DNA of 64,000 nucleotides from an uncultured Clostridia bacterium (lineage in GTDB: Bacteria; Bacillota; Clostridia; Peptostreptococcales; Anaerovoracaceae): contig CAKQWJ010000005.1 of the NCBI GenBank assembly GCA_934278925.1, forward strand, positions 19,615 to 83,614, written 5' to 3'. Positions 3,354 to 63,778 of the stretch are shown here, one piece after another. A program made the position numbers and the translations under genes. Numbering within the stretch: position 1 is the stretch's first letter; every line of letters starts with the position of its first letter. The notes under the pieces are model-generated. The model was not told the DNA's origin. It was given only the letters and a program-made list of their open reading frames with translations, and ran no database searches.

Positions 3354-3428
3354 TGGAGCTGCTGGCGAGAATCGAACTCGCAACCCCTTCATTACGAGTG
3401 AAGTGCTCTACCATTGAGCCACAGCAGC
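3354..3428 (-). tRNA. tRNA-Thr (anticodon CGT), CCA encoded
   Basis: Minus-strand sequence GCTGCTGTGGCTCAATGGTAGAGCACTTCACTCGTAATGAAGGGGTTGCGAGTTCGATTCTCGCCAGCAGCTCCA folds as a cloverleaf with a 7-bp acceptor stem, D-arm, anticodon stem CTTCA/TGAAG with loop CTCGTAA (anticodon CGT), a GTTCGATTC T-arm, and an encoded CCA. Confidence 0.85.
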
Positions 3429-41400: not shown

Positions 41401-41526
41401 AAAGTGCACACTCCCCGTTTCCTCTGCATACACAGTTCGAGTGCAGAGGATGCCCGCTGCCCAAAGGGCAGCAAGCATCAGTACCAGTACAGGGATCCAT
41501 GTTCTTTTTTTCAAATTACTATACAT
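38470..41526 (-). CDS. Secreted CotH-kinase-family protein with C-terminal Ig/FN3-like repeats (1018 aa)
   Basis: Signal peptide present. CotH-type region: …RGRGNSSWKRFEKKPYKIKLDKKTNLFGMGKNKHWALLANYIDESCMRNMLASYYGKQIG…. The C-terminal repeated beta-sandwich modules end in a Lys-rich tail. Confidence 0.65.
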   Translation of the reverse strand: MYSNLKKRTWIPVLVLMLAALWAAGILCTRTVYAEETGSVHFNEAYASPGENLTVTYDGDAEGISYRWYMDDKQINCKGSKYCVTSDDLEKLIRVEAWKDQKKVAQCILLCSKLPVVYINTEDGADITSKDTYVTADFKIQGCDKYNSENTTLYDGKTQIRGRGNSSWKRFEKKPYKIKLDKKTNLFGMGKNKHWALLANYIDESCMRNMLASYYGKQIGTTAMDSVWVDVVLNGKYAGNYQLTETVKLDKNRVNAFDWENAAGDIAEGIAAKDGLSDEDAEKLEDQLKSDLDWMTSDTVKFNGKEYTTTDYYKKPKSVNGGYLMEMDRYYDEISKFKTDRNVPIQFKNPEYLNSSNRAFSGIRNYVQNLEDAIYSPDKCTKDIAGKRLSYVDLCDVDSLTRFWLTSEVMRNEIGSGSTYMYKDIDAPIHFGPVWDFDYGSDSVAPFGASSAVSWASNGRWWFSEIMKDPYFAIKARELYLDKEDTLKEAVKENGTLDRWHDYIEESGIKNQQRWHYSRGFEEDNKALKSWLNKRFNWMDNQFASDESTMKSMHVNLSDKFSLKFEGDDVTHLSAQNYEAVNKKSGEYHLNVDLGNGSYKYLSYYVNGHYVGRMNIEGKNNVDVLLDSELFTESVGDKNVVTVWLQNSEDEYNEQQYCTLSLTDGKVSYCNVELADRGKSTVRKITSGKTLRVPAPTEGDKNMLFDGWDCDGEMVTPGSRITVTSDTTLRAVYRSCIDGDVYHDWKKVGDEYECSRCHAKKADDNTYVDVADCEYAQSSRYNTRYTGSPVAPKITVKYNGNILTAGKDYNITFKNNVNVGYATYTVTGIEDAGFNGKAELSYRIIPRKMKYVSVKMKSSHLVYSGKAQKPSLKLSYKGIPLKAGTDYTVSKATAKNVGTGTVEITGKGNFSEKRTVTYRIVPKTPSVAKVKALRGKKIYVRWKTKKNQVSGYQIAYSVRKNFKSGRIVKVGKKSAVKKTFKVKKAKKKYYVRVRTYKTVKGNKIYSSWSKAKVLKTKR

Positions 41527-41548
41527 TTTTCACCTATACCTTTACACA

Positions 41549-44500
41549 TTACTTCTTAATCTTAATTTTCTTTACGCTGGAGTAGCTGCCGTAAATCGTC
41601 TTGCCGGAAACCTTTCTGTACGCCCGAACCTTGTAGTAATAGGTCTTGCCCTTTTTCAGCTTCGTATTGGTCCAGCCCCGTGTTTTGGAACCGGCAGTCT
41701 TCATACAGTGATACTTTCCTTTGCTTGAGGTCGCTCTGTATACTTTATATCCGCCGGCATTTGCAGCCTTTTTCCAAGTTATTTTTACCTTACAGCCCTT
41801 CAGATTCTTCACCGAAGCAACTTTTACCTTGGAAGGTTTTGCCACCTTCTTTGCTTCTTTGATCTTGAAGCTTACCTTCACCGTTCCGGTGTATCCACGC
41901 TTGGATATTCCGGTAACCGTTGCCGTCGCAGTACCCAGCTTCACGTTGTTGGAGTAGGTTACCTTGTAATGGACCTTTTCGGTCAATGCCTGATCTCCGT
42001 CTTTTACCACAACCGGCGTCAATGCCTTGCCGGTGTATGTCTGGTCCGGAGCAGATACCGTGCATTTCGAGAGGGACTTCTTCTTCATGTATCCGGTATT
42101 CGGGTCGAAATCGTAACGAACGCCTTCAATCACGGTCGGTTCCGTTACGTAATCATTGCCCCAGTAGTACCGTGTTCCCACAACCTTATTGTTGGAGTCG
42201 GTTTCGTTCTCGAACGCTCCGCGGAGCAGAACGCCGTTGGTGTCGAATTTGAAGTATCTTGAAGTGACCTTCTTGTTGCCCGGTGTGGCAATCTTCGTAT
42301 CCTTTCCATCTTTGCCGACGTACATCTCTCCATCGTCCGGAGATACGGTGTTATTGTATCTTCTCCTGAAGTAGTACATGTTTCCGTCGATTTCTCTCCA
42401 CCGGATGGCATAAGAGCCGCCGCCTTCATAGTATCTCGTAATCGTCTTCTCTGTTCCGTCCTTCAATGTAACGGTTTCCGTTACGAAACTTCCCTTGACG
42501 AACACGCCTTTCTTGTTAAAAGTAAACTTCTTTCCGTCGATGGTAACCGTACCGGTTGATGCGTAGCCATCCTTGTCCATGTAGTACCAATCATCACCGA
42601 TTGATTCCCAATGGTTCTTGACAAATTCTCCATCTTTCAGATAACGAGGAAGACCGGTTTCCTTATCGGTAACCATGCCGGTCTTATCCGAAGGAATTTT
42701 CTTGGAAATCCCGCAGTTCTTGCAGACCAGCCGGTCATTTACGACTACAAACTCGTGCTGATCATTGGCACAGGTTTCCTTTACCTTCTCCTTACTGTAA
42801 CAGTAATCATTCATCTTCGTTCCATCGGCATCGTAGACATCCACAGAGAATTTCGTATCTGTGGCACTCATCTTGAAGTAAACACCGGTGAAATCATCAA
42901 TCGGCTTTACCGCAAAGTTATACTCTTTGGCATTCGATGGTGGATATGCCTTTCCGCCGGTAGTGCCGCATACGTAGTACACAACACCGTTCTTTTTGTC
43001 CGTCTCTCCCTTTGTGGTCGGATGGGTTCGAACCAGGGAATGATCGTGTCCGGAGAACATAAAATCGATTCCGGCCCGTTCGCAAGCATCCGGAATGTAC
43101 TTCGTGAAGGAAGCGCAGTCGTCTGTCGTCGCATTGGTGCCGTATGGCGGCTGATGGGAAACCACAATCTTCCATTTTGCATTGCTCTTCGCTGCGTCCG
43201 AAACCAGCCACTCGGCATCCTCTTTTGCCGCCTGATCCTTGGAATTATATCCAAGAACCGCAACGTATACATTGCCGTAGGTAACCGAGTAGTGCTGCTG
43301 ATTGCTGATATCAAACAGTTTCTTCTGATTGATTCCTTCCGTGTCTCCGTAGAATTCATGGTTGCCGCTTACGTGAATCATATCGGTTCTGTTAAACGGT
43401 GCCGCGCTGAACATATCCAGAATAGCAGTCCATTCGTTATACAGATTGGAAGTCTCCACGAAATCTCCCGTCTGCACGCCGAAGGAATACTTGTCCTTCG
43501 CCAGATCCTTCATAATATCCTGAAGGATGCTCTTATCCTCTACCTGCGTATCGCCCAGTAGGAAGAATTTCGTATCCTCACCGTTATTGTAAGTGCTGAA
43601 TTCTCGTACATCGGACCAGTGTTCTCCGTCACCTACCTTATAAACGTAATCGCTTCCGCTCTTCAGGTCCGTAACGTTCACGGTGTTGATGTAAATCGTC
43701 TTATTGTTCGTCGCAATCGAAGAACCGTCGAAGTTCAATCTTTCGCAGGTTCCTTCCTGCTCCTTAAAGGCCTTCTCCTTATTTTCTTCATAGTCGCTCT
43801 TCAGCGCCACTTTTGCCACGGCCTTCTTTTCCGCATTCACCGGATTGGACATCCACGTAATGCTCTTGGTATTCTCCGAATTCTTCACCGCATTCAGCTG
43901 GATGTAGGCCGGTGTTCCATCTTCATTTGCACCGGAATTAAGAATCTGGGCGGTTTCGATGAACGAAGGTTTTCCCTGAGCATCCTTTGCATAAATCGAG
44001 ATTTTCTGTGCATCCCGGAATCTCGATGTGGTCAGCGTTCCACGGATATCGGTTTCCCCGATTTTCTCGCCGTCCGCCATATAGATGCCGATTCCTTTTA
44101 CCGTCTTACCATTTTTGTCGGTAACGATAATCTTCGTATCCTCTCCGGCAACCGTATTCTCGACACTAATGTTGTATGCCGACTTCACTTCCATGCGCTG
44201 CGTCTTGCGGGTAAAAGAAAGTTCGTGGTTTTCGCCTTGCTCGTCCGTGTACTCAAAATTACCGGCCGTCACTGCATAGGTGAATTTCTTATCCTTCGTC
44301 AAATCGGTTGGCACACCTACCTTGACCGTCGCAAGATTTCCTTCCCCTGAAACATCCGCATCCGCCTTTTTCTTTACAAAAATCTGAACGCTGTTATCGG
44401 TCTTGTTGTACACCGGCGCCTTCGCTTCTTCGAATCCGTCCGCGTATTCCACCGTATAATCCGAGATGCCCTTGCCCAGTTCGATTTCCGTCGATGCGCT

Positions 44501-47218
44501 GTTCACACATTTCCGATTATCTGCCTTCAGATTCAGGCTAACATGTTCTCCCAAGTACGCTCCGTCTTCCGCCGGATACACGTTTACCTTCGGCTTATTC
44601 TGATCGGTTCCGTCCACATCAAAGGAGAACTTCTTTGTCGTTTCGTTTCCTTCCTTGTCCCGAATCAACACCTTAATGGAATGAGTTCCATTCGGCAAAT
44701 ACCAGTTGTTCAGATAAATCGTATCCTTACTCTTATCCTCCAGCAGGGAATTGTTTTCCAGTGCTTTGTCGGTAATGTTCTTTCCATCGATCCAGATATT
44801 TTTAGTGTTGTAGTCCACGCCGGATGTGTATTTGTTTTCCACATCGGAAACATTCACCTCAAAGTTTGCGGTATTGGACTTAATGGCTTCTTCTTTATTG
44901 TTGAGACCGATTCCGTTTACCGAAATGCTGTTAATCAGCGGGTTGTCCGTATCCGTCGTATTCGCACCGTATACGAACTGTACGTTATCGACGTAAATGG
45001 CGCCCTTGATGTCCGATTTCGGAACCCGAACAATCTTTCCATCTTCCTTGATGAAGTTTCCTCCCGACGGCGGCAAATACATCAGACGAATGGTCTCTCC
45101 GCCAATCAGCTTAAACGGTCCCTTCAGCGGTTCTTTGCTTTGCGGATTAACTAGTTTTGCTTCCACGTACTTCCAGCCGGTCCAGTCAATGCCTCCCAGT
45201 TCCTCTGCATTTTCATTGCTACAGCCGTTCGGCGTAAAGTTCAGTGTCTGTACCCCGCCGGTTCCGTCCTTCACGCGGATTCGAAGCCAGAAATTCGGCG
45301 TTCCCTTCGGTGCGTATACGTACATGCCAATCGCCGATGGATTTCCGGGAATTTCCTGGGTCTCATTGGAGAATCCAACACACGCACCCTCGGTGCTTCC
45401 TCCGACACCGGAGAAATCGTAGTTCAGCTTGAGGGAATTATTTCCCTTCCGAACCGGTTCTCCACTGGAGATTCCAACAATTTCTGCGGACTCCTTTCCA
45501 CCTCTGGAATCCTCGGCACCGGTTGTTGGATCCACACTGTTCGGATAATGTCCGTATAGCAGCTTCGACGAAGAAGAGGTTCCCAGCCATTTGCCGTCCT
45601 TATCCCATACGCCGCGAATCTGCCCACCGCCGGCATCAAAGCCTGCACGATTAAAGGTCCAATAATCTTTCGCCGCAACGGTTTTTCCGTCGACCACCTG
45701 ATCTTCAAAATCCATGGCAACAGTAGGCTGCAGGCCGACGACAACGTCTACCTTTCCATTCACTTCTTTGTTGTGCTTATACGCACAGTGAACGGTTCCG
45801 TACAGTGTTTTTCCATCGGAAGACACGAATTTGTTGCCGTGGAATTCTCCCAGCTTAACATTCGGGTCGGTCACTTCTTTTTTGTCCGCATCTTTCAGAT
45901 CTGTTACGCTCCAGTCAAAATCATCATCGGAATAATGAATCTGACGATTCTTGTATTTTACAGTGAGACCGAGATCTGATTCCTTTTCAAATCCAAGCGC
46001 CACTTCTTCATTCTCAAAAGAGATGGAATCCGGCTGCTGAACTTCGATGGTCGTTGTTCCGACTACTTCGTTTCCAACCTTCAGTTGTACTTCTGCCGTT
46101 CCGGTTTTCTCACCGGCGGTAAATGCGCCGTCTTCCGTGATGGTACCCATCTGGCTGTCCTTCAGTGCAAACTTTGCGCCGGACGGAATATTTGCCTTTC
46201 CTCCCGCACTGTCTACGCCTGTTGCCTTGAACTGCACCTTCGATCCCGGTGTGTACACTTCATTATCCGGAGTAATCGTCGCATGGTCGAATTCCCCGCT
46301 TCCCTTCGCATCGGAATACACCATCAGTGCAGAAGATACTTTTCTTTCCACGCCGTCGGACGGGCTGTTCTTCACCGTCAGCTCATCCGTTCCTTCGGAC
46401 TTGCTGGCATAGGTATACGAACCGCCGCCATCAATATAGATTGCTTCCTTACAGCCCAATTTCACCATGGTCTGTGCAGTTTCTTCATAAGTCATTCCTA
46501 CGGATTTCGGTGCCTGTCGTCCGTCTGCACCAAAGAGAACTACTTCCCCGTTTTCCTTTATACCAACCGCATTTCTAGGAATTCTGGCTTGATCTGCACG
46601 GACCCAATCTTCCAGGTCCACTTTACCATCGGTGACCAACTTAATCGGTCCGCCAATTGCTTCTTTGACGTCGCTCAGGTCTACCGGTTCGTGCATATCA
46701 CGAATTACCGCCTTGCCCGGTTTTCCATCTTCTCCTTTCAGTATAGCGAAATAATAGTAACCTTCGCCCCAGCCGCTGGTGCTCTTTACTACTTTTCCGT
46801 TCATGACAAGGACTCCGGTCGGTTCTCCGGTAGTCATGTTAAAGTAGTCGCCATTCGTCGCCGCTACGATATTCTTGCCGGTCTTCTTGGTCACTGCGGC
46901 CGCCTGATCTCGAACGGTCTGCAGTCCCCACTTTCCACTGGTATCGTAATCCTTGTAGCTGGCTAGGATTCCGGCTTTTTTTGTTAAATCCACAGTCGCT
47001 GCATACCCTTGTACCTGATTATCTCCTTGGGAGTCTACCAGTGTGATATGCTGTTCTTTCACTCCCGGTGCAATATTGTACTGCTTCAGCGAAGTCAGCT
47101 GTTTTCCTTCCGGAGCGGTAAAATCCGCAGCGAAAACGCTTTCCAAATTGCAGAGAGTCAGAAGAAATACACAGCTCAACGCTATGCTGAACATTTTCTT
47201 CAGTTTTCCCATTTCCAT
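41549..47218 (-). CDS. Giant secreted multidomain protein (1889 aa): N-terminal phosphodiester-glycosidase (NAGPA/DUF2233-like) domain, central calcineurin-like metallophosphoesterase, cell-wall-binding (WYY/D-DG) repeats and C-terminal FN3/Ig-like domains
   Basis: Signal peptide MEMGKLKKMFSIALSCVFLLTLCNLESVFA. Metallophosphoesterase motifs are present (…GDTQVEDKS…GDFVE…GNHEF…VSHQPPYG…GHDHS…), as are choline-binding-like repeats (GDDWYYMDKDGYASTG). Confidence 0.6.
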   Translation of the reverse strand: MEMGKLKKMFSIALSCVFLLTLCNLESVFAADFTAPEGKQLTSLKQYNIAPGVKEQHITLVDSQGDNQVQGYAATVDLTKKAGILASYKDYDTSGKWGLQTVRDQAAAVTKKTGKNIVAATNGDYFNMTTGEPTGVLVMNGKVVKSTSGWGEGYYYFAILKGEDGKPGKAVIRDMHEPVDLSDVKEAIGGPIKLVTDGKVDLEDWVRADQARIPRNAVGIKENGEVVLFGADGRQAPKSVGMTYEETAQTMVKLGCKEAIYIDGGGSYTYASKSEGTDELTVKNSPSDGVERKVSSALMVYSDAKGSGEFDHATITPDNEVYTPGSKVQFKATGVDSAGGKANIPSGAKFALKDSQMGTITEDGAFTAGEKTGTAEVQLKVGNEVVGTTTIEVQQPDSISFENEEVALGFEKESDLGLTVKYKNRQIHYSDDDFDWSVTDLKDADKKEVTDPNVKLGEFHGNKFVSSDGKTLYGTVHCAYKHNKEVNGKVDVVVGLQPTVAMDFEDQVVDGKTVAAKDYWTFNRAGFDAGGGQIRGVWDKDGKWLGTSSSSKLLYGHYPNSVDPTTGAEDSRGGKESAEIVGISSGEPVRKGNNSLKLNYDFSGVGGSTEGACVGFSNETQEIPGNPSAIGMYVYAPKGTPNFWLRIRVKDGTGGVQTLNFTPNGCSNENAEELGGIDWTGWKYVEAKLVNPQSKEPLKGPFKLIGGETIRLMYLPPSGGNFIKEDGKIVRVPKSDIKGAIYVDNVQFVYGANTTDTDNPLINSISVNGIGLNNKEEAIKSNTANFEVNVSDVENKYTSGVDYNTKNIWIDGKNITDKALENNSLLEDKSKDTIYLNNWYLPNGTHSIKVLIRDKEGNETTKKFSFDVDGTDQNKPKVNVYPAEDGAYLGEHVSLNLKADNRKCVNSASTEIELGKGISDYTVEYADGFEEAKAPVYNKTDNSVQIFVKKKADADVSGEGNLATVKVGVPTDLTKDKKFTYAVTAGNFEYTDEQGENHELSFTRKTQRMEVKSAYNISVENTVAGEDTKIIVTDKNGKTVKGIGIYMADGEKIGETDIRGTLTTSRFRDAQKISIYAKDAQGKPSFIETAQILNSGANEDGTPAYIQLNAVKNSENTKSITWMSNPVNAEKKAVAKVALKSDYEENKEKAFKEQEGTCERLNFDGSSIATNNKTIYINTVNVTDLKSGSDYVYKVGDGEHWSDVREFSTYNNGEDTKFFLLGDTQVEDKSILQDIMKDLAKDKYSFGVQTGDFVETSNLYNEWTAILDMFSAAPFNRTDMIHVSGNHEFYGDTEGINQKKLFDISNQQHYSVTYGNVYVAVLGYNSKDQAAKEDAEWLVSDAAKSNAKWKIVVSHQPPYGTNATTDDCASFTKYIPDACERAGIDFMFSGHDHSLVRTHPTTKGETDKKNGVVYYVCGTTGGKAYPPSNAKEYNFAVKPIDDFTGVYFKMSATDTKFSVDVYDADGTKMNDYCYSKEKVKETCANDQHEFVVVNDRLVCKNCGISKKIPSDKTGMVTDKETGLPRYLKDGEFVKNHWESIGDDWYYMDKDGYASTGTVTIDGKKFTFNKKGVFVKGSFVTETVTLKDGTEKTITRYYEGGGSYAIRWREIDGNMYYFRRRYNNTVSPDDGEMYVGKDGKDTKIATPGNKKVTSRYFKFDTNGVLLRGAFENETDSNNKVVGTRYYWGNDYVTEPTVIEGVRYDFDPNTGYMKKKSLSKCTVSAPDQTYTGKALTPVVVKDGDQALTEKVHYKVTYSNNVKLGTATATVTGISKRGYTGTVKVSFKIKEAKKVAKPSKVKVASVKNLKGCKVKITWKKAANAGGYKVYRATSSKGKYHCMKTAGSKTRGWTNTKLKKGKTYYYKVRAYRKVSGKTIYGSYSSVKKIKIKK

Positions 47219-52689: not shown

Positions 52690-53697
52690 CTACACATGTA
52701 TCACGTCGTACCCTGCCGACTTGAGCATCCGGTTCATCACCGAGAACCCAAGCTCTTCTTCCGGAAGGGCCCGAACCAGAATCACATCTACATCTTCCCG
52801 ATCCAATTCTCTCAGACGGGCAAAAAAATCCTTCGCCGCGGCTTTACTGTCCCGGCCGTAATTCAAGGCAACCGCCTTCTGCCGAGCGTATTTGCACAGC
52901 CGCAGCTGCTCTTCAATTTCCCGCTCCACTGCGGCATCATCGTCGCCTTCGATAATCTTCACTTCCGCCTTCGGCGCATAGTGACGATACTTCATTCCCG
53001 GTGCCTTCGGGTGGAACTCTTCCCCCTCGCTGCGATGCATCGGATCCACGAACAGCGCCGGATCGTATTTCACTTCGCTCCCCAAAGTAAACTCCAGCAT
53101 CTCCTTCGTGATATATCCCGGCCGCAGAATCATCGGCACGTCCCCGGTAAGATCCAGCACTGTGGATTCAATGCCCACCGCGCAGTCTTCTCCCAGAAGA
53201 ACCGCATCGATTCGGCCGTCCATATCCTCCAGCACATCTTCGTATCGGGTCGGGCTGGGTCTTCCGGACCGATTGGCGCTGGGCGCCGCAATCGGTCTCT
53301 CCGACACCCGAATCAAATCTCTGGCCGCCTCACTGAGGGGCATGCGAATTCCCACGGTATCCAGTCCTCCGGTGGTCACCATCGGCACCCTCTCTGCCTT
53401 CTTCATGATGAAGGTAATCGGACCCGGCCAGTAGGCCTGAATCAGCGGAACCGCCACCGCCGGAATTTCCGATGCCACATCCGCCAGCTGTCCCATTTCC
53501 GCAATGTGAACGATCATGGGATTATCGCTGGGACGGCCTTTGGCTTCGTACACCGACCGAACCGCCTCTTCGTCCAGGGCATTGGCCCCCAGGCCGTACA
53601 CCGTCTCTGTGGGAAACGCCACCAGTCCGCCCCGCCGGATAATCTCGCCGGCATGAGCAATATTTTTTTCTGTAATCTCAAGTCTTTCGGTATCCAT
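52690..53697 (-). CDS. tsaC: L-threonylcarbamoyladenylate synthase (Sua5/YwlC type, with C-terminal Sua5 domain)
   Basis: YrdC-domain motif (VAFPTETVYGLGANALDEEAV) and a Sua5 C-terminal domain. Its start overlaps the prfA stop in TAATG, which suggests translational coupling. Confidence 0.9.
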   Translation of the reverse strand: MDTERLEITEKNIAHAGEIIRRGGLVAFPTETVYGLGANALDEEAVRSVYEAKGRPSDNPMIVHIAEMGQLADVASEIPAVAVPLIQAYWPGPITFIMKKAERVPMVTTGGLDTVGIRMPLSEAARDLIRVSERPIAAPSANRSGRPSPTRYEDVLEDMDGRIDAVLLGEDCAVGIESTVLDLTGDVPMILRPGYITKEMLEFTLGSEVKYDPALFVDPMHRSEGEEFHPKAPGMKYRHYAPKAEVKIIEGDDDAAVEREIEEQLRLCKYARQKAVALNYGRDSKAAAKDFFARLRELDREDVDVILVRALPEEELGFSVMNRMLKSAGYDVIHV

Positions 53698-54761
53698 TAG
53701 AAGCTCTTCATCTTCTCCGCCTGGTCATGGGTGATCAGAGCGTCGATAATCTCGTCCAGATCTCCATCCAGGAAGTTTTCCAATTTGTAGATTGTCACGT
53801 TAATTCTGTGGTCGGTTACACGACCCTGCGGGAAGTTGTACGTCCGGATTCGCTCGGAACGGTCTCCGCTTCCCACCTGGCTCCGGCGCTCTGCCGAAAT
53901 CTTGTCGTTCTGCTCCTGGAGCATCAGGTCGTACAGACGGGCCTTCAGTACCTTGAAGGCTTTGTCCTTATTCTTAATCTGGGATTTCTCATCCTGACAG
54001 GTTACCACCAGTCCGGTCGGGATATGGGTCAAACGAACCGCCGAGTCCGTGGTGTTGACGCACTGTCCGCCGTTACCGGAAGCGCGGTACACATCCACCC
54101 GGACGTCGTTCGGGTCGATTTTAACCTCTACGTCATCTACTTCCGGCAGCACCGCGATGGATGCGGCGGAGGTGTGAATCCGTCCGCTGGACTCCGTCTC
54201 CGGCACACGCTGTACCCGGTGCACGCCGCTCTCGAACTTCAGACGGGAGTACGCGCCCTTACCCTTAATCATGATCACCGCTTCCTTCACACCGCCGATT
54301 CCGGTATCGTTCACGTCGATGATCTCCGTCTTCCATCTTCTTCTCTCTGCATAGCGCAGGTACATTCTCATCAGGTCGCCGCCGAACAGCGCCGCCTCGT
54401 CTCCGCCGGTGCCGGCACGAACTTCCAGAATAACGTTCTTCTCATCGTTCGGGTCCTTCGGCAGCAGCAGAATCTTCAGCTCCTCCTGGGATTTCTCGAT
54501 GCCCGCTTCCAGCTCCTTGATTTCCTCCCGAGCCATCTCCCGGAGTTCCTCATCATCTTCCATCTCGAAGATTTCCTTGGAATCCTCCAGCTCCTGCTTC
54601 ATATCCTTGTAGTGCTTGTATTCCTTCACAATCGGCTCCATCTCGCCCATTTCCTTCATGTACTTCTGCCATGTCGGCTGGTCGGAAATGATATCCGGGT
54701 CGGAAACTTTTTTTGCCAGCTCCTCGTACTTGTCTACGGTAAAATCCAATTTGTCAAACAT
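53697..54761 (-). CDS. prfA: Peptide chain release factor 1
   Basis: GGQ motif ([13 protein letters not shown]), RF1-type PET tripeptide ([14 protein letters not shown]) and no frameshift; 354 aa. Confidence 0.9.
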
Positions 54762-54900
54762 AATCTCTTTCCTCTATATTATATGTAAAAAAACGATAAC
54801 ATTTCTTCCGGTCTTCCGGCGCGTCGTCTGCTGTCGTTACAAAAAAATCACGCTCTTTGCCATTATATCACATCCCACATCCGTGTAAAATACAGTCATG

Positions 54901-54940
54901 CGAAAAAGGGATGCTGCAGTCTCTCCCACAGCATCCCCCT
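54901..54940. terminator. Rho-independent terminator 3' of rpmE
   Basis: On the minus strand, gggggatgctgtgggagagactgcagcatccc is followed by tttttcg. Confidence 0.7.
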
Positions 54941-54954
54941 TACTCGTTCGTTCC

Positions 54955-55152
54955 CTAAAGGTTGTACTTGTTCTTGAACTTTTCGATACGTCCGCCACGG
55001 TTTGCAAACTTCTGCTGACCGGTGAAGAACGGATGACACTCAGAGCAAATGTCCACTCTCATCTCGGAGTTGTTGGACAGTGTCATAAATGTATTACCAC
55101 ATGCGCAAGTAACTTTACATTCCTTATAATCAGGATGGATTCCTTCCTTCAT
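54955..55152 (-). CDS. rpmE: 50S ribosomal protein L31 (type A, Zn-binding)
   Basis: Start at ATG 55152 ([22 protein letters not shown]…[10 protein letters not shown]) with RBS AGAGGAGAG. The CxxC…CxxC pattern is present. Confidence 0.9.
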
Positions 55153-55457
55153 GTTGTCTCTCCTCTTTCTGTGAATGTCTATCCGGGCACGGCTTAGTCC
55201 ATCACCCAAATAGCTTTATAATTATATCAGCATGGAACCCTGTACGCAAGGGATTTTTGCTTTATTTTTCGGGTTTTTTGCCCTTTTTTGTGAAGGAAGC
55301 GCTTTCACTCCGTCAATTTGTCTGTTCCCTATCAATCATTGCACCCCACTCCCCCGACGGTTATAATGTATTTGTAAAAAAAGGTTTATTTTTCAACATA
55401 TTCCGGCAGTTCGAAATGCATTCCTCTGCCGAATCGATTACGGAAAGGAAATTCACT

Positions 55458-56657: not shown

Positions 56658-56763
56658 TTTTACATACTTTACTTACTTATATGGTTATTTAGAAAAACGC
56701 GCCTTCTCCGCGGGGGGGAGAAGGCGGCACCGCTCGATGGTATCGAGCAGAGAGAGGGCTTAT

Positions 56764-59700
56764 ATGTTATTTAGTGAGAACAATGCAGATATTCTGTACA
56801 ACGAGATTACCGGCGCTTATCTGGATCGAGGGTACATGCATGGCGAGGGTCTGACCAAGGATCAGGTAAACCGGTCCCGGGATTTGTTCAAAGCCATGGC
56901 CTACGACCTGATTGACCGTGGCGATGAAACCGGACGGATTCACACGCCTGAAATTCTGGCTGTGTGGAAGAATCACCTTCATCCCGGCGGTCCGGAACCG
57001 GAGGACGGCTGGCTGCAGCATTGCTACACGTTCCTTCGGAATCAGCTGTTCCCCCATCTTCCGGGACCGGCGGATGCCGACGCCTTCCGCCAGCAGCGGA
57101 ACAACCTGCTCCAGCTGATGCGCGGCGTATTCATATACGAACAGAAAACCCTTCCCTTCAATCCGACGAAGGACCTTCGGCTGCTCAGCGATGTGCAGAT
57201 TGCAGCCGGCCGTTTTAATCCGGAATACACCAAGATGCACAAAATGATTCGCAACAAGTACATCTACGAATTCATGCGCATCGGTATCGATATTACGCCA
57301 TTTAACACCCTGGGACATATCAGCGGTGTTCATTACGTTGCCATGTATATGGCCTATCAGCTGCACCAGGTGGGAATGCCGGTGGATCTGGGTATCATCT
57401 CCGGCGCCGCCGCCATGCATGACATCGGTAAATACGGCTGCCGCCCATTTGAGGAACAACGTGTTCCGTATCTTCATTATTATTACACCAACTACTGCCT
57501 CAGCCGGAATGCCCTTCCTACCATTGCGCATATCGCAGCCAATCACTCCACCTGGGATCTGGAGCTGGAAAACCTTTCCGTGGAATCCCTGCTGCTCATC
57601 TATGCGGATTTCCGCGTAAAGAGCACCCGAGTGAAGGATAAAGAAGTCATTCACTTCTATTCCCTCAAAGAGGCTTTCGATGTCATCCTGAACAAGCTGG
57701 ACAACGTGGATGCCGCCAAGCGCCACCGCTATGTAAAGGTCTATGCGAAGCTGAAGGATTTCGAAGACCTGATGATTGAAAACGGCGTCTCCGTAGATCT
57801 TCCGAAAGAAGCCACGGCCCATTTCGACGAACAGTGCATTCAGAAACCGATTCCACTGCGCCTCCGCCCTGCCCTGCTCCGGAACGACGAGGTGGTGCAG
57901 GAGCTGAAATTCCGGGCTATCGGCCACAACATCCGAGTGATGAGCCGCTTCAGCAACCCGGAACAGTTCGCCAGCCTGATTGAATCCGCCCGCAGCTGCC
58001 AGCGTTGGAAGGATACCCGTACTTACATCACCATATTGGGGGAATATTCCACCTACATGTCGGAGGATCAGAAGAATCTGACCCTGAATTTCCTGTACGA
58101 AATGTTGGCCCATCAGGCCAGCGACATCCGGGAACAGGCGGCGGCGCTCATGGGCCGCATCGTGGCAAATTACCGAGAGGAGTACAAAAAAGAACTGCCG
58201 AAGGATGTTCCTTCCCCGAACATTACGTCCACCAACATCTATCAGTTTGAATCCTTTCTGATAAAAATACTGAACCCGGACTACAAGGTGACCGACCACC
58301 ACCGGAAATGGATTACTTCCTGTGCGGACTTCTACGTGGAATCCGCCCTGAACAATTGCAATCCGGCGCGCCGTCACTTCTACTTTGATGTGCTGGAAAA
58401 GTATTACGATTCGGAGGATGTGTCGGAAGCGCGCATCATCGTGCTGATGATTACCGCCCTTCGAATCAATCCGACCTGGTGTCCGGACTCCTTTATCCAG
58501 ACCATCCGCTTCTTTTCCAAGAACATGCTGGGGTCCTTTTCCCAGGATGTGGATTTGATCACCTTGGATGTGATGGATCATTACTTCGGGGATACCATGG
58601 AGAACTTCACGGACATCCGCCGAAAGGATATTCTGGGATTGACGGGGGACACTCTGACGGAGAAGGAGCTGTCCACCATGTTCCTGGACAACCTGAAGAC
58701 CCGCACTTCCTGGAACCGGAAAATGGCCAATATCCGCTATATGCTGGAATCGGTCCACACCGAAGTGGGGCAGGCCCGCATTCTCCAGATTGCAATCCAC
58801 CTGGCCAACCTGATTAAAAACAGTGAAACCATCACCGTTCGCCGTTATGCCGCTCAGGCCCTGTTCCGGATTCTGCCGGATCTCACATCGGATCAGGCCA
58901 ATGAGCTGATGATTGAGATTTTCAACGGCCTGGAAATTGAGGATTACCAGTTCAGCCGGTCCCTGCCGAAGGTGCTGGGCATCATCACTCTGTACCTACC
59001 GCCGAAGGAACTGGATGAAGTCATAGACGAACTGGAGAAGATGCTGAACAACGGCGTGGAACGTTCTGCCTGTGCGGCCCTTCAGACCATCGCCGTCATT
59101 CTGGAAGAATACGATATCTACAAATTCGAAGAAAAAGCCGGCGTCATGGAAGCTCGCACCTCCAGGCTGCTGGGACTCCTGCTGAAGGGTTTTGCCTACT
59201 ACCGTGCGCCGATTTCCCAGGAAGCCTTCCGCATGATTGGAGAACGCATTTTCCACAGCGAGAAGCTCTCACCGGAACAGAAGCACGATATCGCCGTTCG
59301 CTGCTTCAAGCGGCTGGTAACCATCATCCCGTTTTCCGCGAAGGAGCGTGAGGATTTGCAGTTCTACAATAACTCTGCGGGGTTGCTGAATATCTATCGC
59401 TTCATATCGGAATATCAGACGGAGGTGGGCGATTTCCGCTTCCCGGAAATGAAGAAGGTGGCGTTCTTCCCGGGAACCTTCGACCCGTTCAGCCTGGGGC
59501 ACAAGGCCATTGCCACCACCATTCGGAATATGGGCTACCAGGTATATCTGGCCATCGATGAATTCTCCTGGTCCAAGAAGACCCTGCCTCACATGCTGCG
59601 GGAGGAAATTCTTGCCATGTCCATCGCCGATGAAGAGAACCTTTATATTTTCCCGGACGATATTTCCGTCAACATTGCCAATCCGGAGGATCTGGCGGAA

Positions 59701-61566
59701 CTGCGCAGCCTGTTCCCGGAACAGGAAGTCTACATTGCAATGGGATCCGACGTGGTGAAGAACGCTTCCTGCTATCGGTTGGAGCCTTGCGAAAACTCCA
59801 TCCATTCTTTTAACCACATCATCTTCGCGAGAGATGCCAAGAATTTGGATGAAGAAACCGGTGAGGCCTACCCGATTACGGGAGAGGTCATCCACCTGAA
59901 GCTGAAAAAGTACTACGAGGATATCAGCTCCACAAAGATCCGGGACAACATCGATATGGGGCGGGATATTTCCAACCTGCTGGACCCAATCGTGCAGAAC
60001 TACATCTACGACCGCAGCCTCTATTCCAGGGAGCCGGCGTACAAACACGTACTGCAGGCCCAAGATTTGAAAATCAGCGACTACAAGCACGACAACTACG
60101 CGGCCATCGCCAATATGCGGGAGGAGCTGAGCGGCCGGGGCTACGCTTTCGACGCCCTGTGGAACTACCTCTCCCACGAGGATACTCAAACCCTCTACGT
60201 GGAGAGCGGGCACAAGAACCGGAAGGTTTCCGCTTTTGCGGCGGCACGAAGATTTGAAACTCACGATTTGCTGACGGAGTTTCAGGATCCGAAGATTACC
60301 GCCACCATTCGAAATCAGGCCCACGGGGGCATTGCGGTTATCGGTGCATTCTACGCCAATTCCAATCGTTCCGTCAGCAATCTGAACCAGATTCTTCTGA
60401 CGGAACTGCTCACCGGTCTGCTGGCCAAAGACTACGCGTATGCCGTCTACCATCCGATTGACCCAAGCGGCTACAGCGGTGCCACCATCGAGGCGCTGCG
60501 CCGACAGGGTTTCGTAAATATTTCGGATACCGCCGCTCATCCGGTGTATGCGGTAGACCTCACCGACCCGATTGTCATTTTCCGGGATGTGGAAACGGTT
60601 ATCAAGGCGCCGCTGAACAAGATTCCAAAGGTGCAGAAGGCCATCGACGATGCCCACAACCGGCTGCTGAACACCTTTACCCAGATGTTCCCGGGGAAAT
60701 TGGTGATTTCTTTTAACACCAGCGCGGTATACAGCAAAATCGTGGATTTGGTGGCACTGGATAACGGAGTGTCCACCATTCCGGATCCGGCCCGAAAACG
60801 CGGACCGTATCTGGCGGTACCGTTCGGAAAAGCACTGTCCGATGTGGCCGTTCCGAACACGGTAACGAAAGCGCTGTATACGGAGAAATATTTCCGAAAC
60901 GACTTGTCCGGCTTCACCGTGGGCGCATCGGAGAATTACCCGTCCTTGAAAAACCAGGCACGGATGCTGAAATCCTTCAACCGTCCGGTGATTCTCATCG
61001 ACGACCTGCTCCACAAGGGACAGCGCATGAACAACATCGACCCGATTCTCCGGACACAGAATATCGACGTGCACAAAATCATCGTGGGACTTCTTACGGG
61101 GAATGCCCGGGACACCATGAGCGTTCGGGGCCGGGAGGTGGAATCGGCCTACTTCATCCCGACCATCTCCATGTGGCTCAACGAGCGGGACTGCTACCCA
61201 TTCATCGGCGGAGACAGCATCGAACGGCCGGACGGTTCAGCGGCACGCTCCGTTAATTTTATCCTGCCGTACACCAGCTTCAACTTCGTGGGCGGCAAGA
61301 ATCTGGAACACATTTACAAATACTCCATGACCTGTCTGGAGAATGCCCGGGATATTCTTCAGGTGCTGGAGCAGGAATACCAGGCAACGTTCGGCAAGAA
61401 GCTGACCATCCGGCGGCTGGGGGCTATCATCAGCAACCCGAGAATGCCGGTGCTGGGGGCGGACCTGGACTACAACGAACACCTTTCCCCGTCCCAGTAT
61501 GTGGAAAGCGATATCCGGAAGGCGCAGCGCCTCAGCCTGTACCGAGAATGCGAAATGGAGGAATAG
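56764..61566 (+). CDS. Uncharacterised ~1600-aa multidomain protein: N-terminal HD phosphohydrolase domain, long helical (HEAT-like) repeat region, HxGH/ISSTxxR cytidylyltransferase-like (NadD/PPAT-type) nucleotidyltransferase domain, C-terminal PRTase-like segment
   Basis: Start at ATG 56764 (MLFSENNADILYNEITGAYL…). The track ORF starts earlier, but that start overlaps coaBC and lacks an RBS. HD motifs: HISGVHYVAMY…AAMHDIGKYG (nt ~57418-57432)…IAHIAANH…IYADFRV. NTase motifs: FFPGTFDPFSLGHKAIA (59473-59502) and ISSTKIRDNI (59922-59942). PRTase-like motif: RPVILIDDLLHKGQRM (60988-61020). The stop is 4 nt before the next gene. Confidence 0.7.
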   Translation: MLFSENNADILYNEITGAYLDRGYMHGEGLTKDQVNRSRDLFKAMAYDLIDRGDETGRIHTPEILAVWKNHLHPGGPEPEDGWLQHCYTFLRNQLFPHLPGPADADAFRQQRNNLLQLMRGVFIYEQKTLPFNPTKDLRLLSDVQIAAGRFNPEYTKMHKMIRNKYIYEFMRIGIDITPFNTLGHISGVHYVAMYMAYQLHQVGMPVDLGIISGAAAMHDIGKYGCRPFEEQRVPYLHYYYTNYCLSRNALPTIAHIAANHSTWDLELENLSVESLLLIYADFRVKSTRVKDKEVIHFYSLKEAFDVILNKLDNVDAAKRHRYVKVYAKLKDFEDLMIENGVSVDLPKEATAHFDEQCIQKPIPLRLRPALLRNDEVVQELKFRAIGHNIRVMSRFSNPEQFASLIESARSCQRWKDTRTYITILGEYSTYMSEDQKNLTLNFLYEMLAHQASDIREQAAALMGRIVANYREEYKKELPKDVPSPNITSTNIYQFESFLIKILNPDYKVTDHHRKWITSCADFYVESALNNCNPARRHFYFDVLEKYYDSEDVSEARIIVLMITALRINPTWCPDSFIQTIRFFSKNMLGSFSQDVDLITLDVMDHYFGDTMENFTDIRRKDILGLTGDTLTEKELSTMFLDNLKTRTSWNRKMANIRYMLESVHTEVGQARILQIAIHLANLIKNSETITVRRYAAQALFRILPDLTSDQANELMIEIFNGLEIEDYQFSRSLPKVLGIITLYLPPKELDEVIDELEKMLNNGVERSACAALQTIAVILEEYDIYKFEEKAGVMEARTSRLLGLLLKGFAYYRAPISQEAFRMIGERIFHSEKLSPEQKHDIAVRCFKRLVTIIPFSAKEREDLQFYNNSAGLLNIYRFISEYQTEVGDFRFPEMKKVAFFPGTFDPFSLGHKAIATTIRNMGYQVYLAIDEFSWSKKTLPHMLREEILAMSIADEENLYIFPDDISVNIANPEDLAELRSLFPEQEVYIAMGSDVVKNASCYRLEPCENSIHSFNHIIFARDAKNLDEETGEAYPITGEVIHLKLKKYYEDISSTKIRDNIDMGRDISNLLDPIVQNYIYDRSLYSREPAYKHVLQAQDLKISDYKHDNYAAIANMREELSGRGYAFDALWNYLSHEDTQTLYVESGHKNRKVSAFAAARRFETHDLLTEFQDPKITATIRNQAHGGIAVIGAFYANSNRSVSNLNQILLTELLTGLLAKDYAYAVYHPIDPSGYSGATIEALRRQGFVNISDTAAHPVYAVDLTDPIVIFRDVETVIKAPLNKIPKVQKAIDDAHNRLLNTFTQMFPGKLVISFNTSAVYSKIVDLVALDNGVSTIPDPARKRGPYLAVPFGKALSDVAVPNTVTKALYTEKYFRNDLSGFTVGASENYPSLKNQARMLKSFNRPVILIDDLLHKGQRMNNIDPILRTQNIDVHKIIVGLLTGNARDTMSVRGREVESAYFIPTISMWLNERDCYPFIGGDSIERPDGSAARSVNFILPYTSFNFVGGKNLEHIYKYSMTCLENARDILQVLEQEYQATFGKKLTIRRLGAIISNPRMPVLGADLDYNEHLSPSQYVESDIRKAQRLSLYRECEMEE

Positions 61567-61569
61567 ACA

Positions 61570-62529
61570 ATGCATATTCATGATCTGGTAAAAGAACCCC
61601 TCTCCTTGCGAAAGTGTCCGGTGACCCCGGGTACCAAAGCGCGGGTGAATATCGTGGCGCTGGGGGATGTGGGAACCACCATGCTCATCGGCCTCAAGCT
61701 TCTGGGGGGCGATGTGATCGAGTCCATCGGCATCTGCGATATTCGGAAGGAAAACACCCAGCGGCTGGAAATGGAAATGAATCAGATCGGGTGCCCCTTC
61801 GGCGGACCGGTCCTTCCCTCCGTGGATGTGGTGCCGGAGGAAGAACTCTTTGCCGGAGACGTGCTGATATTCTGTGCCAGCCGGGGAATTCCGCCGGTGG
61901 AGCCCGGCTCCAATGTAGATGTACGGATGGCGCAGCTGGAGGCCAACCGGGATATCATCCGGCATTACGCCGAACTGGCACGAGATGCCCGGTATCAAGG
62001 GCTGGTGTGCGTGGTCAGCGATCCGGTAGACAACCTGTGTGCGGCGTTCCTGGATGAATCCGGGCTGGAGCCATGGCAGATTCAGGGATACGGCCTTGGA
62101 GTCATGCACAAAAGAGCGGAATATTATGCCTCCAAGGATTCCCGTTTCGCCTCCTACCTCACGGAGGGACGGGCCTTCGGTCCTCACGGGAAGGACCTGG
62201 TAATTGCCAACAGCATTGACCGGTATGACGATGCCCTTTCCCGGGAATTGACGGACCGGGCGGTCCTGGCCAACATCGCCGTCCGGGACCTGGGCTTCAA
62301 GCCTTACATCGCACCGGCCCTTTCCTCTGCCGCACTGTCCATCCTCCTCACCCTCCGGGGGGAATGGCACTACGGCTCCCTGTACCTGGGCACTCGGGAA
62401 CGGGGCGCATTTCTGGGAATGAAAAACCGCCTTACGGAAGGCGGCTGGGAATGGGAGGATTTGGACCTTCCGGCGGAGCTTTACGAAAGGATTCGGAACG
62501 CTTATGAAAACCTCTGCGAAATCCGATAA
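61570..62529 (+). CDS. LDH/MDH-superfamily 2-hydroxyacid dehydrogenase-like protein (divergent)
   Basis: Rossmann N-terminus (ARVNIVALGDVGTTMLIGL), LDH-like VVSDPVDNL segment, and a GPHGKD segment aligned by eye with the LDH catalytic GEHGDS. Confidence 0.6.
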   Translation: MHIHDLVKEPLSLRKCPVTPGTKARVNIVALGDVGTTMLIGLKLLGGDVIESIGICDIRKENTQRLEMEMNQIGCPFGGPVLPSVDVVPEEELFAGDVLIFCASRGIPPVEPGSNVDVRMAQLEANRDIIRHYAELARDARYQGLVCVVSDPVDNLCAAFLDESGLEPWQIQGYGLGVMHKRAEYYASKDSRFASYLTEGRAFGPHGKDLVIANSIDRYDDALSRELTDRAVLANIAVRDLGFKPYIAPALSSAALSILLTLRGEWHYGSLYLGTRERGAFLGMKNRLTEGGWEWEDLDLPAELYERIRNAYENLCEIR

Positions 62530-63649
62530 TGAGATTCATAATAACAAGCCAAAAGAACTTCTGGTGATTCGTCCCATCTGCGAGATGCTGGGACGAATCG
62601 GCCGGATGGAACAGGTACTGGGGGACTGCCTGACCCGATTGGAAGAGGAAGGCGTCCGGGTGACCTTGGTGGAAAAGGTATCCGAACTGGAAGATATTCC
62701 CATGCCCGGAAAAAAGGTGATTTTCGCCATCTGCCTCTCGGAGTCCGGCGTCAACCTGGAATACTACCGGCTGCTGGAAGCCTTCCGGCTCCATCCCCAC
62801 TGCTTGGACGGTTCCGTGGGTGGAATTATCGTGGACGGCGCCAGCGATCTGTACACCAAAGCATTGGCCCGCCGCATGGCCTTCTCCGCCAACAGTTCGG
62901 GCTGCACCTTTCCCGGAAAACCCCTGGTGGAAGCCACCGGCACCCTGGCGAACTTCCGGGTGCTGAGCCAAATTACGGGAAAATCGTTGGAAGAAGTCTA
63001 CGCCCTTCAGGTGGAAAATCTGATGCGAAAGGTCCTGGACTTCGATCTGACCGATGCCGGGTGGCGCCATCCGGATGACGCCTCGTCTGCGTCCCCGCTT
63101 CACATTGCCGCCATCCATTCCGGTTCCCGAAAAACCTCCAACACGCTTCTTCTATGGGATATGATTCGGCGAAACTTGCCGGAGGGCACCACCGTGGAAG
63201 AAGTCTCCCTCCGGAACGGCTCCATTCAGGATTGCCGCGGCTGCACCTTTGAGGCCTGCCGCCACTTCGGCGAGAAAGAAGATTGCTTTTACGGCGGAAT
63301 CATGACGGAGCAGGTTTTTCCGGCCATCCTTCGCAGCGATGCGGTCATGCTGATTTCACCGAACTACAACGATGCCCTGAGCGCCAACCTCACCGCTATG
63401 GTCAACCGGCTCACTGCACTGTTTCGGACCCATGATTTCAGTAAAAAAAGAATCTACAGTCTGGTGGTTTCCGGCTACAGCGGCGGCGATATCGTGTCGG
63501 AACAGATTCTGGGGGCCTTCTGCTTCAACAAGAACTTCATCCTGCCGGGGCGATTTGCCATCGTGGAAACCGCCAACGACCCCGGCGCCATTCTGGATGT
63601 GCCGGGGATTGAGGGCAAGGCGCGCACCTTTGCGCAGCATATGTGGTAA
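62504..63649 (+). CDS. Two-domain flavodoxin-fold protein; C-terminal half resembles iron-sulfur flavoproteins / NADPH-dependent FMN reductases (compact Cys motif CRGCTFEACRHFGEKEDC)
   Basis: Overlaps the upstream gene by 26 nt. …LHIAAIHSGSRKTSNTLLLWDMI… has an FMN-reductase-like N-terminus. A Cx2Cx3Cx7C cluster lies at nt 63232-63288. Confidence 0.55.
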   Translation: MKTSAKSDNEIHNNKPKELLVIRPICEMLGRIGRMEQVLGDCLTRLEEEGVRVTLVEKVSELEDIPMPGKKVIFAICLSESGVNLEYYRLLEAFRLHPHCLDGSVGGIIVDGASDLYTKALARRMAFSANSSGCTFPGKPLVEATGTLANFRVLSQITGKSLEEVYALQVENLMRKVLDFDLTDAGWRHPDDASSASPLHIAAIHSGSRKTSNTLLLWDMIRRNLPEGTTVEEVSLRNGSIQDCRGCTFEACRHFGEKEDCFYGGIMTEQVFPAILRSDAVMLISPNYNDALSANLTAMVNRLTALFRTHDFSKKRIYSLVVSGYSGGDIVSEQILGAFCFNKNFILPGRFAIVETANDPGAILDVPGIEGKARTFAQHMW

Positions 63650-63736: not shown

Positions 63737-63778
63737 AAGAGAATCGGATGCGTCTGATTCTCTTTTTTTGTTTTTTAC
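63737..63778 (+). terminator. Rho-independent terminator closing the 56.7-63.6 kb operon (aagagaatcggatgcgtctgattctcttttttt)
   Basis: An 8-9 bp stem is followed by a long T-run. Confidence 0.8.

Follow-up and report, generated by a model that had tools for sequence, protein, structure and literature searches.

The closest described relative of the protein reported here is the NadD-YqeK pair, which occurs as a fusion or as an operon (JCVI-Syn3A_0380; NCBIfam PRK07152). In the fused enzyme, the HD domain hydrolyses nicotinic acid adenine dinucleotide (NaAD) and its analogues and acts as a proofreading diphosphatase (PMC9426524). Here, we describe a three-gene cassette in a 64,000-nt stretch of DNA from an uncultured Clostridia bacterium of the family Anaerovoracaceae (GCA_934278925.1, contig CAKQWJ010000005.1, positions 19,615 to 83,614), referred to below as the window. 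The first gene (56764-61566, + strand), delimited from the list of open reading frames (ORFs) and from homologues, encodes a 1600-aa multidomain protein that we call BIG. The second (61570-62529, + strand) encodes a divergent NAD-dependent 2-hydroxyacid dehydrogenase of 319 aa in the lactate/malate dehydrogenase (LDH/MDH) family, and the third (62504-63649, + strand) encodes a 381-aa flavoprotein resembling the iron-sulfur flavoprotein Isf. Like the NadD-YqeK fusion, BIG carries a NadD-type domain and an HD domain in one polypeptide. However, the order in BIG is reversed, with the HD domain N-terminal and ~550 aa of HEAT repeats between the two; its HD domain did not match the YqeK model, and its NadD score fell far under the curated cut-off. 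BIG also adds a GNAT domain and a phosphoribosyltransferase (PRT)-like domain, and it is accompanied by two dedicated redox partner genes. Our best guess, which we put forward tentatively, is that the cassette encodes a scaffolded complex that builds and cleaves a dinucleotide and is coupled to its redox partners.

The full-length product of gene 1 was matched by more than 3600 database protein clusters. The best 120 homologues were 1488-1765 aa long and shared 48-97% identity with BIG, with a query coverage of 93-100% in all but one. The identical 1600-aa sequence was carried by 13 independent contigs and belonged to a 90% cluster of 1819 members; the ORF is therefore not an assembly artefact, a concern that the initial annotation had raised. 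Conservation extended over the whole length of the protein, with a mean column identity of ~62% among homologues of 48-78% identity, and the nearest genome was that of Mogibacterium kristiansenii (96% identity). Database names were generic ('phosphohydrolase', 'nicotinate-nucleotide adenylyltransferase' or 'hypothetical'), and a literature search returned no paper on the 1600-aa protein or the cassette. Each module of BIG belongs to a known fold superfamily, and no characterised protein or system matches it end to end, as had been anticipated from the sequence.

Conservation of the cassette was determined in a species scan with one genome per species. At least 535 species had a relative, and the best 80 loci were examined. 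An LDH-like gene was located directly 3' of the BIG gene in 76 of the 80 loci and an Isf-like gene adjoined in 70, and nearly all missing partner genes were accounted for by contig ends. The gaps among the three genes were mostly −4 to +40 nt. The Isf-like gene was inverted in one Spirochaete metagenome-assembled genome (MAG; L069), and Acetoanaerobium carried the cassette at 34% identity in the same gene order. The cassette was present in Anaerovoracaceae, Mogibacterium, Emergencia, Hornefia, Megasphaera and Acidaminococcaceae, and further carriers were Blautia, Anaerotignum, Sedimentibacter, Peptococcaceae and Oscillospiraceae. The cassette is a chromosomal, single-copy, vertically conserved three-gene operon.

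In the window, the ATG of gene 1 was preceded by the ribosome-binding site AGAGAGGG. A longer ORF from a GTG at 56578 overlaps coaBC, and this start is unlikely to be real. Genes 1 and 2 were separated by 3 nt (TAG aca ATG) with GGAGGAA just 5', genes 2 and 3 overlapped by 26 nt, and both downstream genes are translationally coupled to gene 1. The operon was closed by an intrinsic terminator at 63737-63778 (+ strand), in which a 12-bp stem (63737-63764) was followed by a T-run; its fold had a z of −4.7, and none of 200 shuffled sequences folded equally well. The initial annotation had described three tightly coupled + strand genes forming a self-contained operon with a strong terminator at this position. 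The ORFs, the junctions, the terminator and the gene order, kept in nearly all 80 loci when homologues with the same neighbourhood were sought, all agreed with that description, including the 26-nt overlap; the first gap is 3 nt and not 4 nt as stated there.

From its N to its C terminus, BIG was divided into six modules, namely a helical region, an HD domain, a HEAT solenoid, a nucleotidyltransferase resembling NadD/NMNAT, a GNAT fold and a PRT-like domain of type I. The N-terminal region (~residues 1-160; 56764-57243, + strand) was all-helical in an AlphaFold2 model (m2607acf2dc2f) and weakly conserved, with R58, P79, G82 and W83 invariant. The metal-dependent HD phosphohydrolase domain followed (~residues 165-330; 57256-57753, + strand), as assigned from Pfam and the invariant residues. 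The Pfam HD match of the window protein itself was borderline (E = 0.0066, 17.2 bits vs. a cut-off of 22), and PF01966 was matched by 18 of 20 homologues with a best E of 2.8e-6. Residues H185, H219-D220 (in HDIGK), H238, H261 and D282 were invariant among homologues, a predicted ligand set that is consistent with a binuclear HD phosphohydrolase. The YqeK model TIGR00488 gave no match to this domain at E ≤ 0.1. A HEAT-repeat alpha-solenoid (~residues 370-890; 57871-59433, + strand) linked the HD domain to the nucleotidyltransferase. The profile search against PDB sequences returned nothing significant for the HD, middle or C-terminal regions, and structure prediction was therefore needed for these parts.

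The nucleotidyltransferase (~residues 895-1090; 59446-60033, + strand) belongs to the NadD/NMNAT-like branch of the HIGH superfamily. Residues 901-1061 matched Pfam CTP_transf_like (PF01467) above the cut-off (E = 6e-10), and the NadD model TIGR00482 was matched at E = 3.7e-14 over profile positions 2-194 of 194, with a score of 53.2 bits that fell short of the curated equivalog cut-off of 112.45. A family profile of this domain aligned end to end with the NadD/NMNAT structures 5llt, 8aih and 2h29 (E = 1.8e-7 to 2e-6), whereas phosphopantetheine adenylyltransferase (PPAT) structures aligned to the first ~65 residues only. The likeness to NadD/NMNAT spans ~195 aa and includes the ATP motifs xGH and ISSTxxR and a G-x-D...aromatic motif at the NadD position. 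In contrast to NadD/NMNAT, the first motif of BIG is SxGH, the motif for the phosphate of nicotinic acid mononucleotide (NaMN) is replaced by an invariant DEFSWSK, and the domain is embedded in 1600 aa. Both signature motifs, PGTFDPFSLGH and ISSTKIR, were invariant, as were residues H913, S1055, S1056 and R1060.

These matches raise the explanation that BIG serves housekeeping NAD biosynthesis or salvage as a fused nicotinate PRT-like, NadD and YqeK protein replacing the canonical genes. The database names (nicotinate-nucleotide adenylyltransferase or phosphohydrolase) and the NadD models as best matches favor it; a NadD score of 53 vs. 112 bits and an HD domain with no YqeK match do not. In addition, Acetoanaerobium noterae carried a canonical obgE-yhbY-nadD-yqeK-(LCP)-rsfS cluster on the same record as the cassette, and its canonical proteins scored well above the cut-offs (NadD, 240 bits vs. 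150; YqeK, 150 vs. 70). Since canonical nadD-yqeK coexist with the cassette in this one genome, the cassette appears to be accessory and not part of the housekeeping NAD pathway. The known nicotinate and nicotinamide PRTs do not have type-I PRT folds, which also counts against this explanation. Replacement of the canonical pathway is, in our view, very unlikely, and BIG probably does not act as the NadD/YqeK of the cell.

Residues ~1102-1334 (60067-60765, + strand) displayed the alpha/beta fold of GNAT acyl-CoA N-acyltransferases. Motif A, the acyl-CoA pyrophosphate loop (Q/R-x-x-G-x-G/A), was degenerate: BIG reads NSNRSVSNLNQ (consensus KxRSISNLxQ), with no Gly. The general-acid Tyr was missing, as read from the sequence, and the Pfam GNAT models gave no match to this region. 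The C-terminal part (~residues 1345-1600; 60796-61566, + strand) consisted of a type-I PRT-like domain and C-terminal helices, as assigned by Foldseek and PF00156. With the model of this domain, Foldseek returned the xanthine PRT (XPRT) 1y0b, PurR (1o57/1p4a), the Thermus PRT-related protein 1vch and uracil PRT (UPRT) at E ~1e-4 with a probability of 1.0, and PF00156 was matched by 15 of 23 homologues. The likeness to type-I PRTs consisted of the fold, a hydrophobic strand leading into the DD pair, and the conservation of a Gly in the phosphoribosyl pyrophosphate (PRPP) loop; a downstream GGD motif was also present, as in 6-oxopurine PRTs. The PRPP-type loop reads VILIDDLLHKGQR. D1413 and D1414 were invariant and the central Gly was kept, but the loop follows DDLLHKGxR instead of DDxxTTGxT, so that the canonical T/S-G-x-T residues that bind the 5-phosphate are replaced by H-K-G-x-R, with H1417 and R1421 invariant. 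Unlike type-I PRTs, BIG also contains the strongly conserved segments VPFGK and PNTVTK..TEKYF and a C-terminal helical extension, all of them unique to its family.

The initial annotation had named an HD domain, a helical repeat region, a NadD-branch nucleotidyltransferase and a PRT-like segment in gene 1. All four were recovered by the searches above, the helical repeats as a HEAT solenoid. Its 'HxGH' wording for the nucleotidyltransferase gives way to SxGH, and the GNAT fold between the nucleotidyltransferase and the PRT-like domain had been overlooked.

The two partner genes were characterized in the same way. Gene 2 matched Ldh_1_N at E = 1.1e-6, and its profile matched LDH/MDH structures in the PDB at E = 1.3e-10. 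Like L-LDH, MDH and HicDH, it has a GxGxxG-type Rossmann motif and the Asp typical of NAD specificity, both kept in 20 species, and residues R119, R182 and H206 aligned with LDH R109, R171 and H195; the catalytic His noted by the initial annotation is thus retained. Gene 2 differs from these enzymes in that the D168 equivalent is an invariant Met (Met179), the N140 equivalent is an invariant Asp and the active-site loop is longer. It scored far under the curated LDH and MDH cut-offs, and the only proteins retrieved with the LDH-like profile were close homologues of the cassette type, to which databases give the generic name 'lactate dehydrogenase'. Some LDH-like partners were ~385-405 aa long instead of ~320 aa (P0365, P0378 and similar). 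The LDH-like gene of L016 (14999-16018) had a ~42-aa insertion near the C-terminal domain, and the Blautia and Anaerotignum versions had an insertion after the SDPVD motif.

Gene 3 contained a flavodoxin-like FMN_red domain (PF03358, E = 1.2e-15, 57.9 bits vs. a cut-off of 24). It shares this domain and a compact four-Cys motif with Isf and the NADPH-dependent FMN reductases, in line with the first reading of the gene as a Fe-S flavoprotein. The motif is CxxCx4Cx8C (C244, C247, C252 and C261, invariant across 19 species), a spacing that presumably differs from that of Isf. In contrast to Isf, gene 3 adds a conserved N-terminal domain of ~190 aa with an invariant Cys134. No solved relative was found when the gene 3 profile was compared with PDB sequences, and the generic database name of the Isf-like protein was 'flavodoxin family'. 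Judged from these motifs, gene 3 is a predicted flavoprotein of the FMN/[4Fe-4S] type.

A profile of the GNAT and PRT regions was searched against 1.84 billion representative proteins and yielded 503 clusters at E ≤ 1e-3, of which 192 reached E ≤ 1e-30. Among the 150 matches listed, a length of ~1550-1650 aa prevailed, and many much shorter ones looked like fragments; the GNAT + PRT module thus seems to occur almost exclusively in this architecture. Relatives of 1050-1300 aa aligned to residues 365/415-1590 of the window protein and were devoid of the N-terminal region and the HD domain. These fell into two types. Type A relatives (P0306 in locus L081 and P0251 in locus L088) had LDH-like and FMN_red genes immediately 3', overlapping genes and intact nucleotidyltransferase motifs. 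P0306 (L081, 7002-13124) was an HD-less and GNAT-poor protein of 1075 aa encoded right after recG-rsmD-coaD.

Type B relatives (P0315, P0327, P0330, P0289, P0321 and P0301) had neither an LDH-like nor an Isf-like gene. These proteins of 1065-1286 aa contained HEAT, NadD-like, GNAT-like and PRT-like modules, and an overlapping or abutting upstream gene encoded a PPDK_N ATP-grasp protein of ~850-895 aa (PF01326, E ~1e-40). The type B loci were L084 (4317-10303), L085 (4474-10615), L086/L087 (4426-10198), L089 (866-7275), L091 (3449-9273) and L090 (3-5377). The PPDK_N partners were 53-70% identical to each other and remotely similar to phosphoenolpyruvate (PEP) synthase, PigC and RPH; the N-terminal 400 aa of BIG showed no similarity to them. 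A homologue of the type B PPDK_N partner (~31% identity) was also observed on two Anaerovoracaceae chromosomes (L054, 5437-6981, − strand; L056, 5382-7037, − strand), ~3 kb upstream of a full-length cassette and on the opposite strand. In several type B proteins, the GH of the nucleotidyltransferase was changed to KD or RD and the ISST motif had decayed. The PRT-like signatures VPFGK, TEK, VDDxxHKGxR and YPFxGGD were kept in every relative examined, which makes the PRT-like domain the best-conserved part of the superfamily. The 1600-aa form carries the HD and GNAT domains as accessories.

In the mechanism that we favor, the three proteins would assemble into a single enzyme complex, for which the HEAT solenoid would provide the docking scaffold. 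The PRT-like domain may make a ribonucleotide from a base and PRPP, or bind one, and the NadD-like domain would adenylylate this ribonucleotide at its 5'-phosphate, yielding a pyridine-type dinucleotide joined by a pyrophosphate. Hydrolysis of that bond, either for turnover or as proofreading, would fall to the HD domain, in the way that YqeK serves NadD. The dinucleotide may be made for the attached NAD-dependent 2-hydroxyacid dehydrogenase or sensed together with it, and the dehydrogenase would pass electrons to the Fe-S flavoprotein. The whole module would be an accessory dinucleotide and redox system. The catalytic residues of the HD and nucleotidyltransferase domains, invariant across homologues of 48-78% identity, speak for this mechanism. 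It is supported by the short gaps and by the conserved gene order, which also holds in Acetoanaerobium, P0306 and P0251. By analogy, the functional coupling of HD and NadD domains lends it support as a precedent (PMC9426524), and the alignment of the nucleotidyltransferase with NadD/NMNAT from end to end, and not with PPAT or CitC, supports the predicted reaction.

Several observations weigh against the mechanism. The loop of the PRT-like domain and motif A of the GNAT domain are off the catalytic consensus, so either domain may be a ligand sensor. The carboxylate-binding Arg of gene 2 points to ordinary 2-oxo acid substrates, with no direct link to nucleotide chemistry. The erosion of the nucleotidyltransferase motifs in several type B relatives, in which the PRT-like motifs persist, indicates that the wider family does not share this reaction as a universal core. 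Two or three Peptococcaceae MAGs, of which L053 and L055 are the clear cases, had a full-length, HD-containing gene with no adjacent LDH-like or Isf-like genes.

A more specific version holds that the dinucleotide is a private, non-canonical cofactor, both made and used by the cassette. The PRT-like domain with its basic loop and the NadD-like domain would assemble this cofactor, starting from an uncommon base or nucleotide donor; the HD domain would recycle it, and the divergent LDH-like protein and the flavoprotein would be its dedicated users. We regard this version as rather doubtful. If true, it would amount to an orthogonal redox-cofactor system in anaerobic Firmicutes, with a sister system in which a PPDK_N dikinase replaces the redox pair.

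The features that sit uneasily with catalysis lead to the main rival explanation, in which BIG is a sensor-scaffold regulator. The protein would mainly be a HEAT platform on which the NadD-like, GNAT and PRT-like folds bind metabolites and control the partner proteins. The ligands would be NAD or NaAD, acyl-CoA, and PRPP or (p)ppGpp-like nucleotides; control would be exerted by allostery, or by nucleotidylylation that the HD domain reverses in the manner of GlnD/GlnE. HEAT solenoids are protein-interaction scaffolds, and PurR and XPRT, which were among the matches of the PRT-like domain, bind PRPP or ppGpp as effectors. The missing motif A and general-acid Tyr of the GNAT domain and the non-canonical phosphate loop of the PRT-like domain fit this explanation. 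So does the exchange of partners among relatives (LDH-like and Isf-like proteins vs. the PPDK_N ATP-grasp), as well as the eroded motif in several PPDK_N-linked members, in which the nucleotidyltransferase fold is retained. However, every HD and nucleotidyltransferase catalytic residue is invariant in the LDH/Isf-linked branch, which exceeds what ligand binding would need. No HIGH-type nucleotidyltransferase is known to modify proteins, and no target residue or motif was identified. A regulatory role is possible, though we do not think it probable.

The GNAT domain and the CoA genes found near some cassettes bear on another explanation, a CitC-like acid-thiol ligase. In such an enzyme, the nucleotidyltransferase would adenylate a carboxylate, for example that of a 2-hydroxy acid made by the LDH-like enzyme, and the GNAT domain would present a thiol to form a thioester. 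The thiol would be CoA or phosphopantetheine, and this would tie the cassette to CoA metabolism. A HIGH-type nucleotidyltransferase and a GNAT fold in one protein are the fold pair of the citrate lyase ligase CitC, a comparison made by family scans. In BIG, however, the domain order is opposite, with the GNAT domain C-terminal to the nucleotidyltransferase, and CitC has no extra domains or partner genes. The CitC models PF08218 and TIGR00124 gave no match to gene 1 at E ≤ 0.1, whereas NadD models matched end to end. The degenerate CoA-pyrophosphate motif of the GNAT domain also disagrees with a ligase, and the PRT-like and HD domains would be left unexplained.

Genomic context gave the ligase some support: coaBC lies upstream of the cassette in the window, coaD lies upstream of the HD-less cassette of L081, and the relative in L088 is followed by activase-type genes. 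In the window, coaBC ends at 56657, 5' of gene 1 (TIGR00521, 460 bits). A GC-rich hairpin between them (56700-56726) lacks a + strand U-run; transcripts of coaBC may therefore continue into gene 1, but they need not. An A-run 5' of this hairpin on the + strand gives it a terminator score for the − strand only, and no − strand gene reads into it. Among the 80 loci, coaBC was upstream in only two (L001 and L008), both from Mogibacterium; its adjacency is lineage-specific and incidental. CoA genes adjoined 3 of 81 loci, coaBC twice and coaD once (L081), a frequency that counts against the ligase. A general link of the cassette to CoA genes, considered as a candidate, was rejected on these numbers; the link to coaBC in the initial annotation is likewise incidental. 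The coaD gene of L081 and the coaBC gene of the window place a CoA-biosynthesis gene upstream in two lineages, which may be due to chance. Because the coaD just upstream of the L081 cassette is a normal one, the cassette is not a CoaD replacement. Downstream of the P0251 cassette, L088 (11884-15801) carried BcrAD_BadFG/DUF2229 genes ('CoA-substrate-specific enzyme activase'); at this one locus, they may hint at chemistry of the 2-hydroxyacyl-CoA dehydratase type. Overall, we consider a CitC-like ligase unlikely.

Large multidomain proteins that combine HD, nucleotidyltransferase and PRT-like domains occur in defence systems, and the initial annotation had left room for a nucleotide-based defence or signalling role. 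PADLOC gave no match for any of the three cassette proteins, and 50,697 phage records contained no cassette homologue. The single 'plasmid' match (NZ_CP154629.1, Acetoanaerobium noterae 'plasmid pTPELB2', 2.63 Mb, with 4 annotated features; L082/L083) appears to be a chromosome or chromid filed under the wrong label, because the core genes obgE-yhbY-nadD-yqeK-rsfS are aboard; none was found on a true plasmid. The base composition of the cassette was continuous with its neighbourhood, and housekeeping genes (prfA, rpmE, GDH, MgtE and recG-rsmD-coaD) adjoined it in a single-copy, vertically conserved setting. An anti-phage defence or nucleotide-signalling island is, in our estimate, extremely unlikely, and the suggested defence role was not borne out.

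Beyond the two partner genes, no gene family was common to more than 15 of the 80 loci when other conserved neighbours were sought. The commonest neighbours, GDH and MgtE, reflected lineage synteny in Anaerovoracaceae. An Rfam scan upstream of the cassette in the window and five other loci detected no riboswitch or leader. Downstream of the BIG gene in L053 (2048-12904) were genes for a GGDEF protein, signal peptidase, YceG, an O-methyltransferase and a U32 peptidase. In the window, a YrdC/Sua5-like protein, PrfA and L31, as read from translations, were encoded just upstream of coaBC. Ordinary housekeeping genes around the cassette were located at 12470-13840, 17250-19532, 20924-24337 and 52690-55209 (all − strand); the surroundings included a CCA-adding enzyme with its own HD domain, Lon protease and AddB. 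A tRNA gene was present at 3357-3428 (− strand). Adjacent genes at 38470-47218 (− strand) encoded two very large proteins, each with an N-terminus resembling a signal peptide: one, of 1889 aa, contained NAGPA phosphodiester glycosidase and purple-acid-phosphatase/metallophosphoesterase domains, and the other, of 1018 aa, contained a CotH kinase domain.

The cassette ranks among the larger conserved unknowns of anaerobes from gut and sediment. Some 2300 codons are under strong purifying selection, and they encode four enzyme-type folds on one HEAT scaffold plus two dedicated redox enzymes. Bacteria rarely have multi-enzymes built on a HEAT scaffold. The labels 'NaMN adenylyltransferase' and 'phosphohydrolase' are misleading, and the present analysis would correct the annotation of thousands of sequences. 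Knowledge of its chemistry may uncover either a new branch of pyridine-nucleotide or cofactor metabolism or a new bacterial way of coupling nucleotide sensing to fermentation enzymes.

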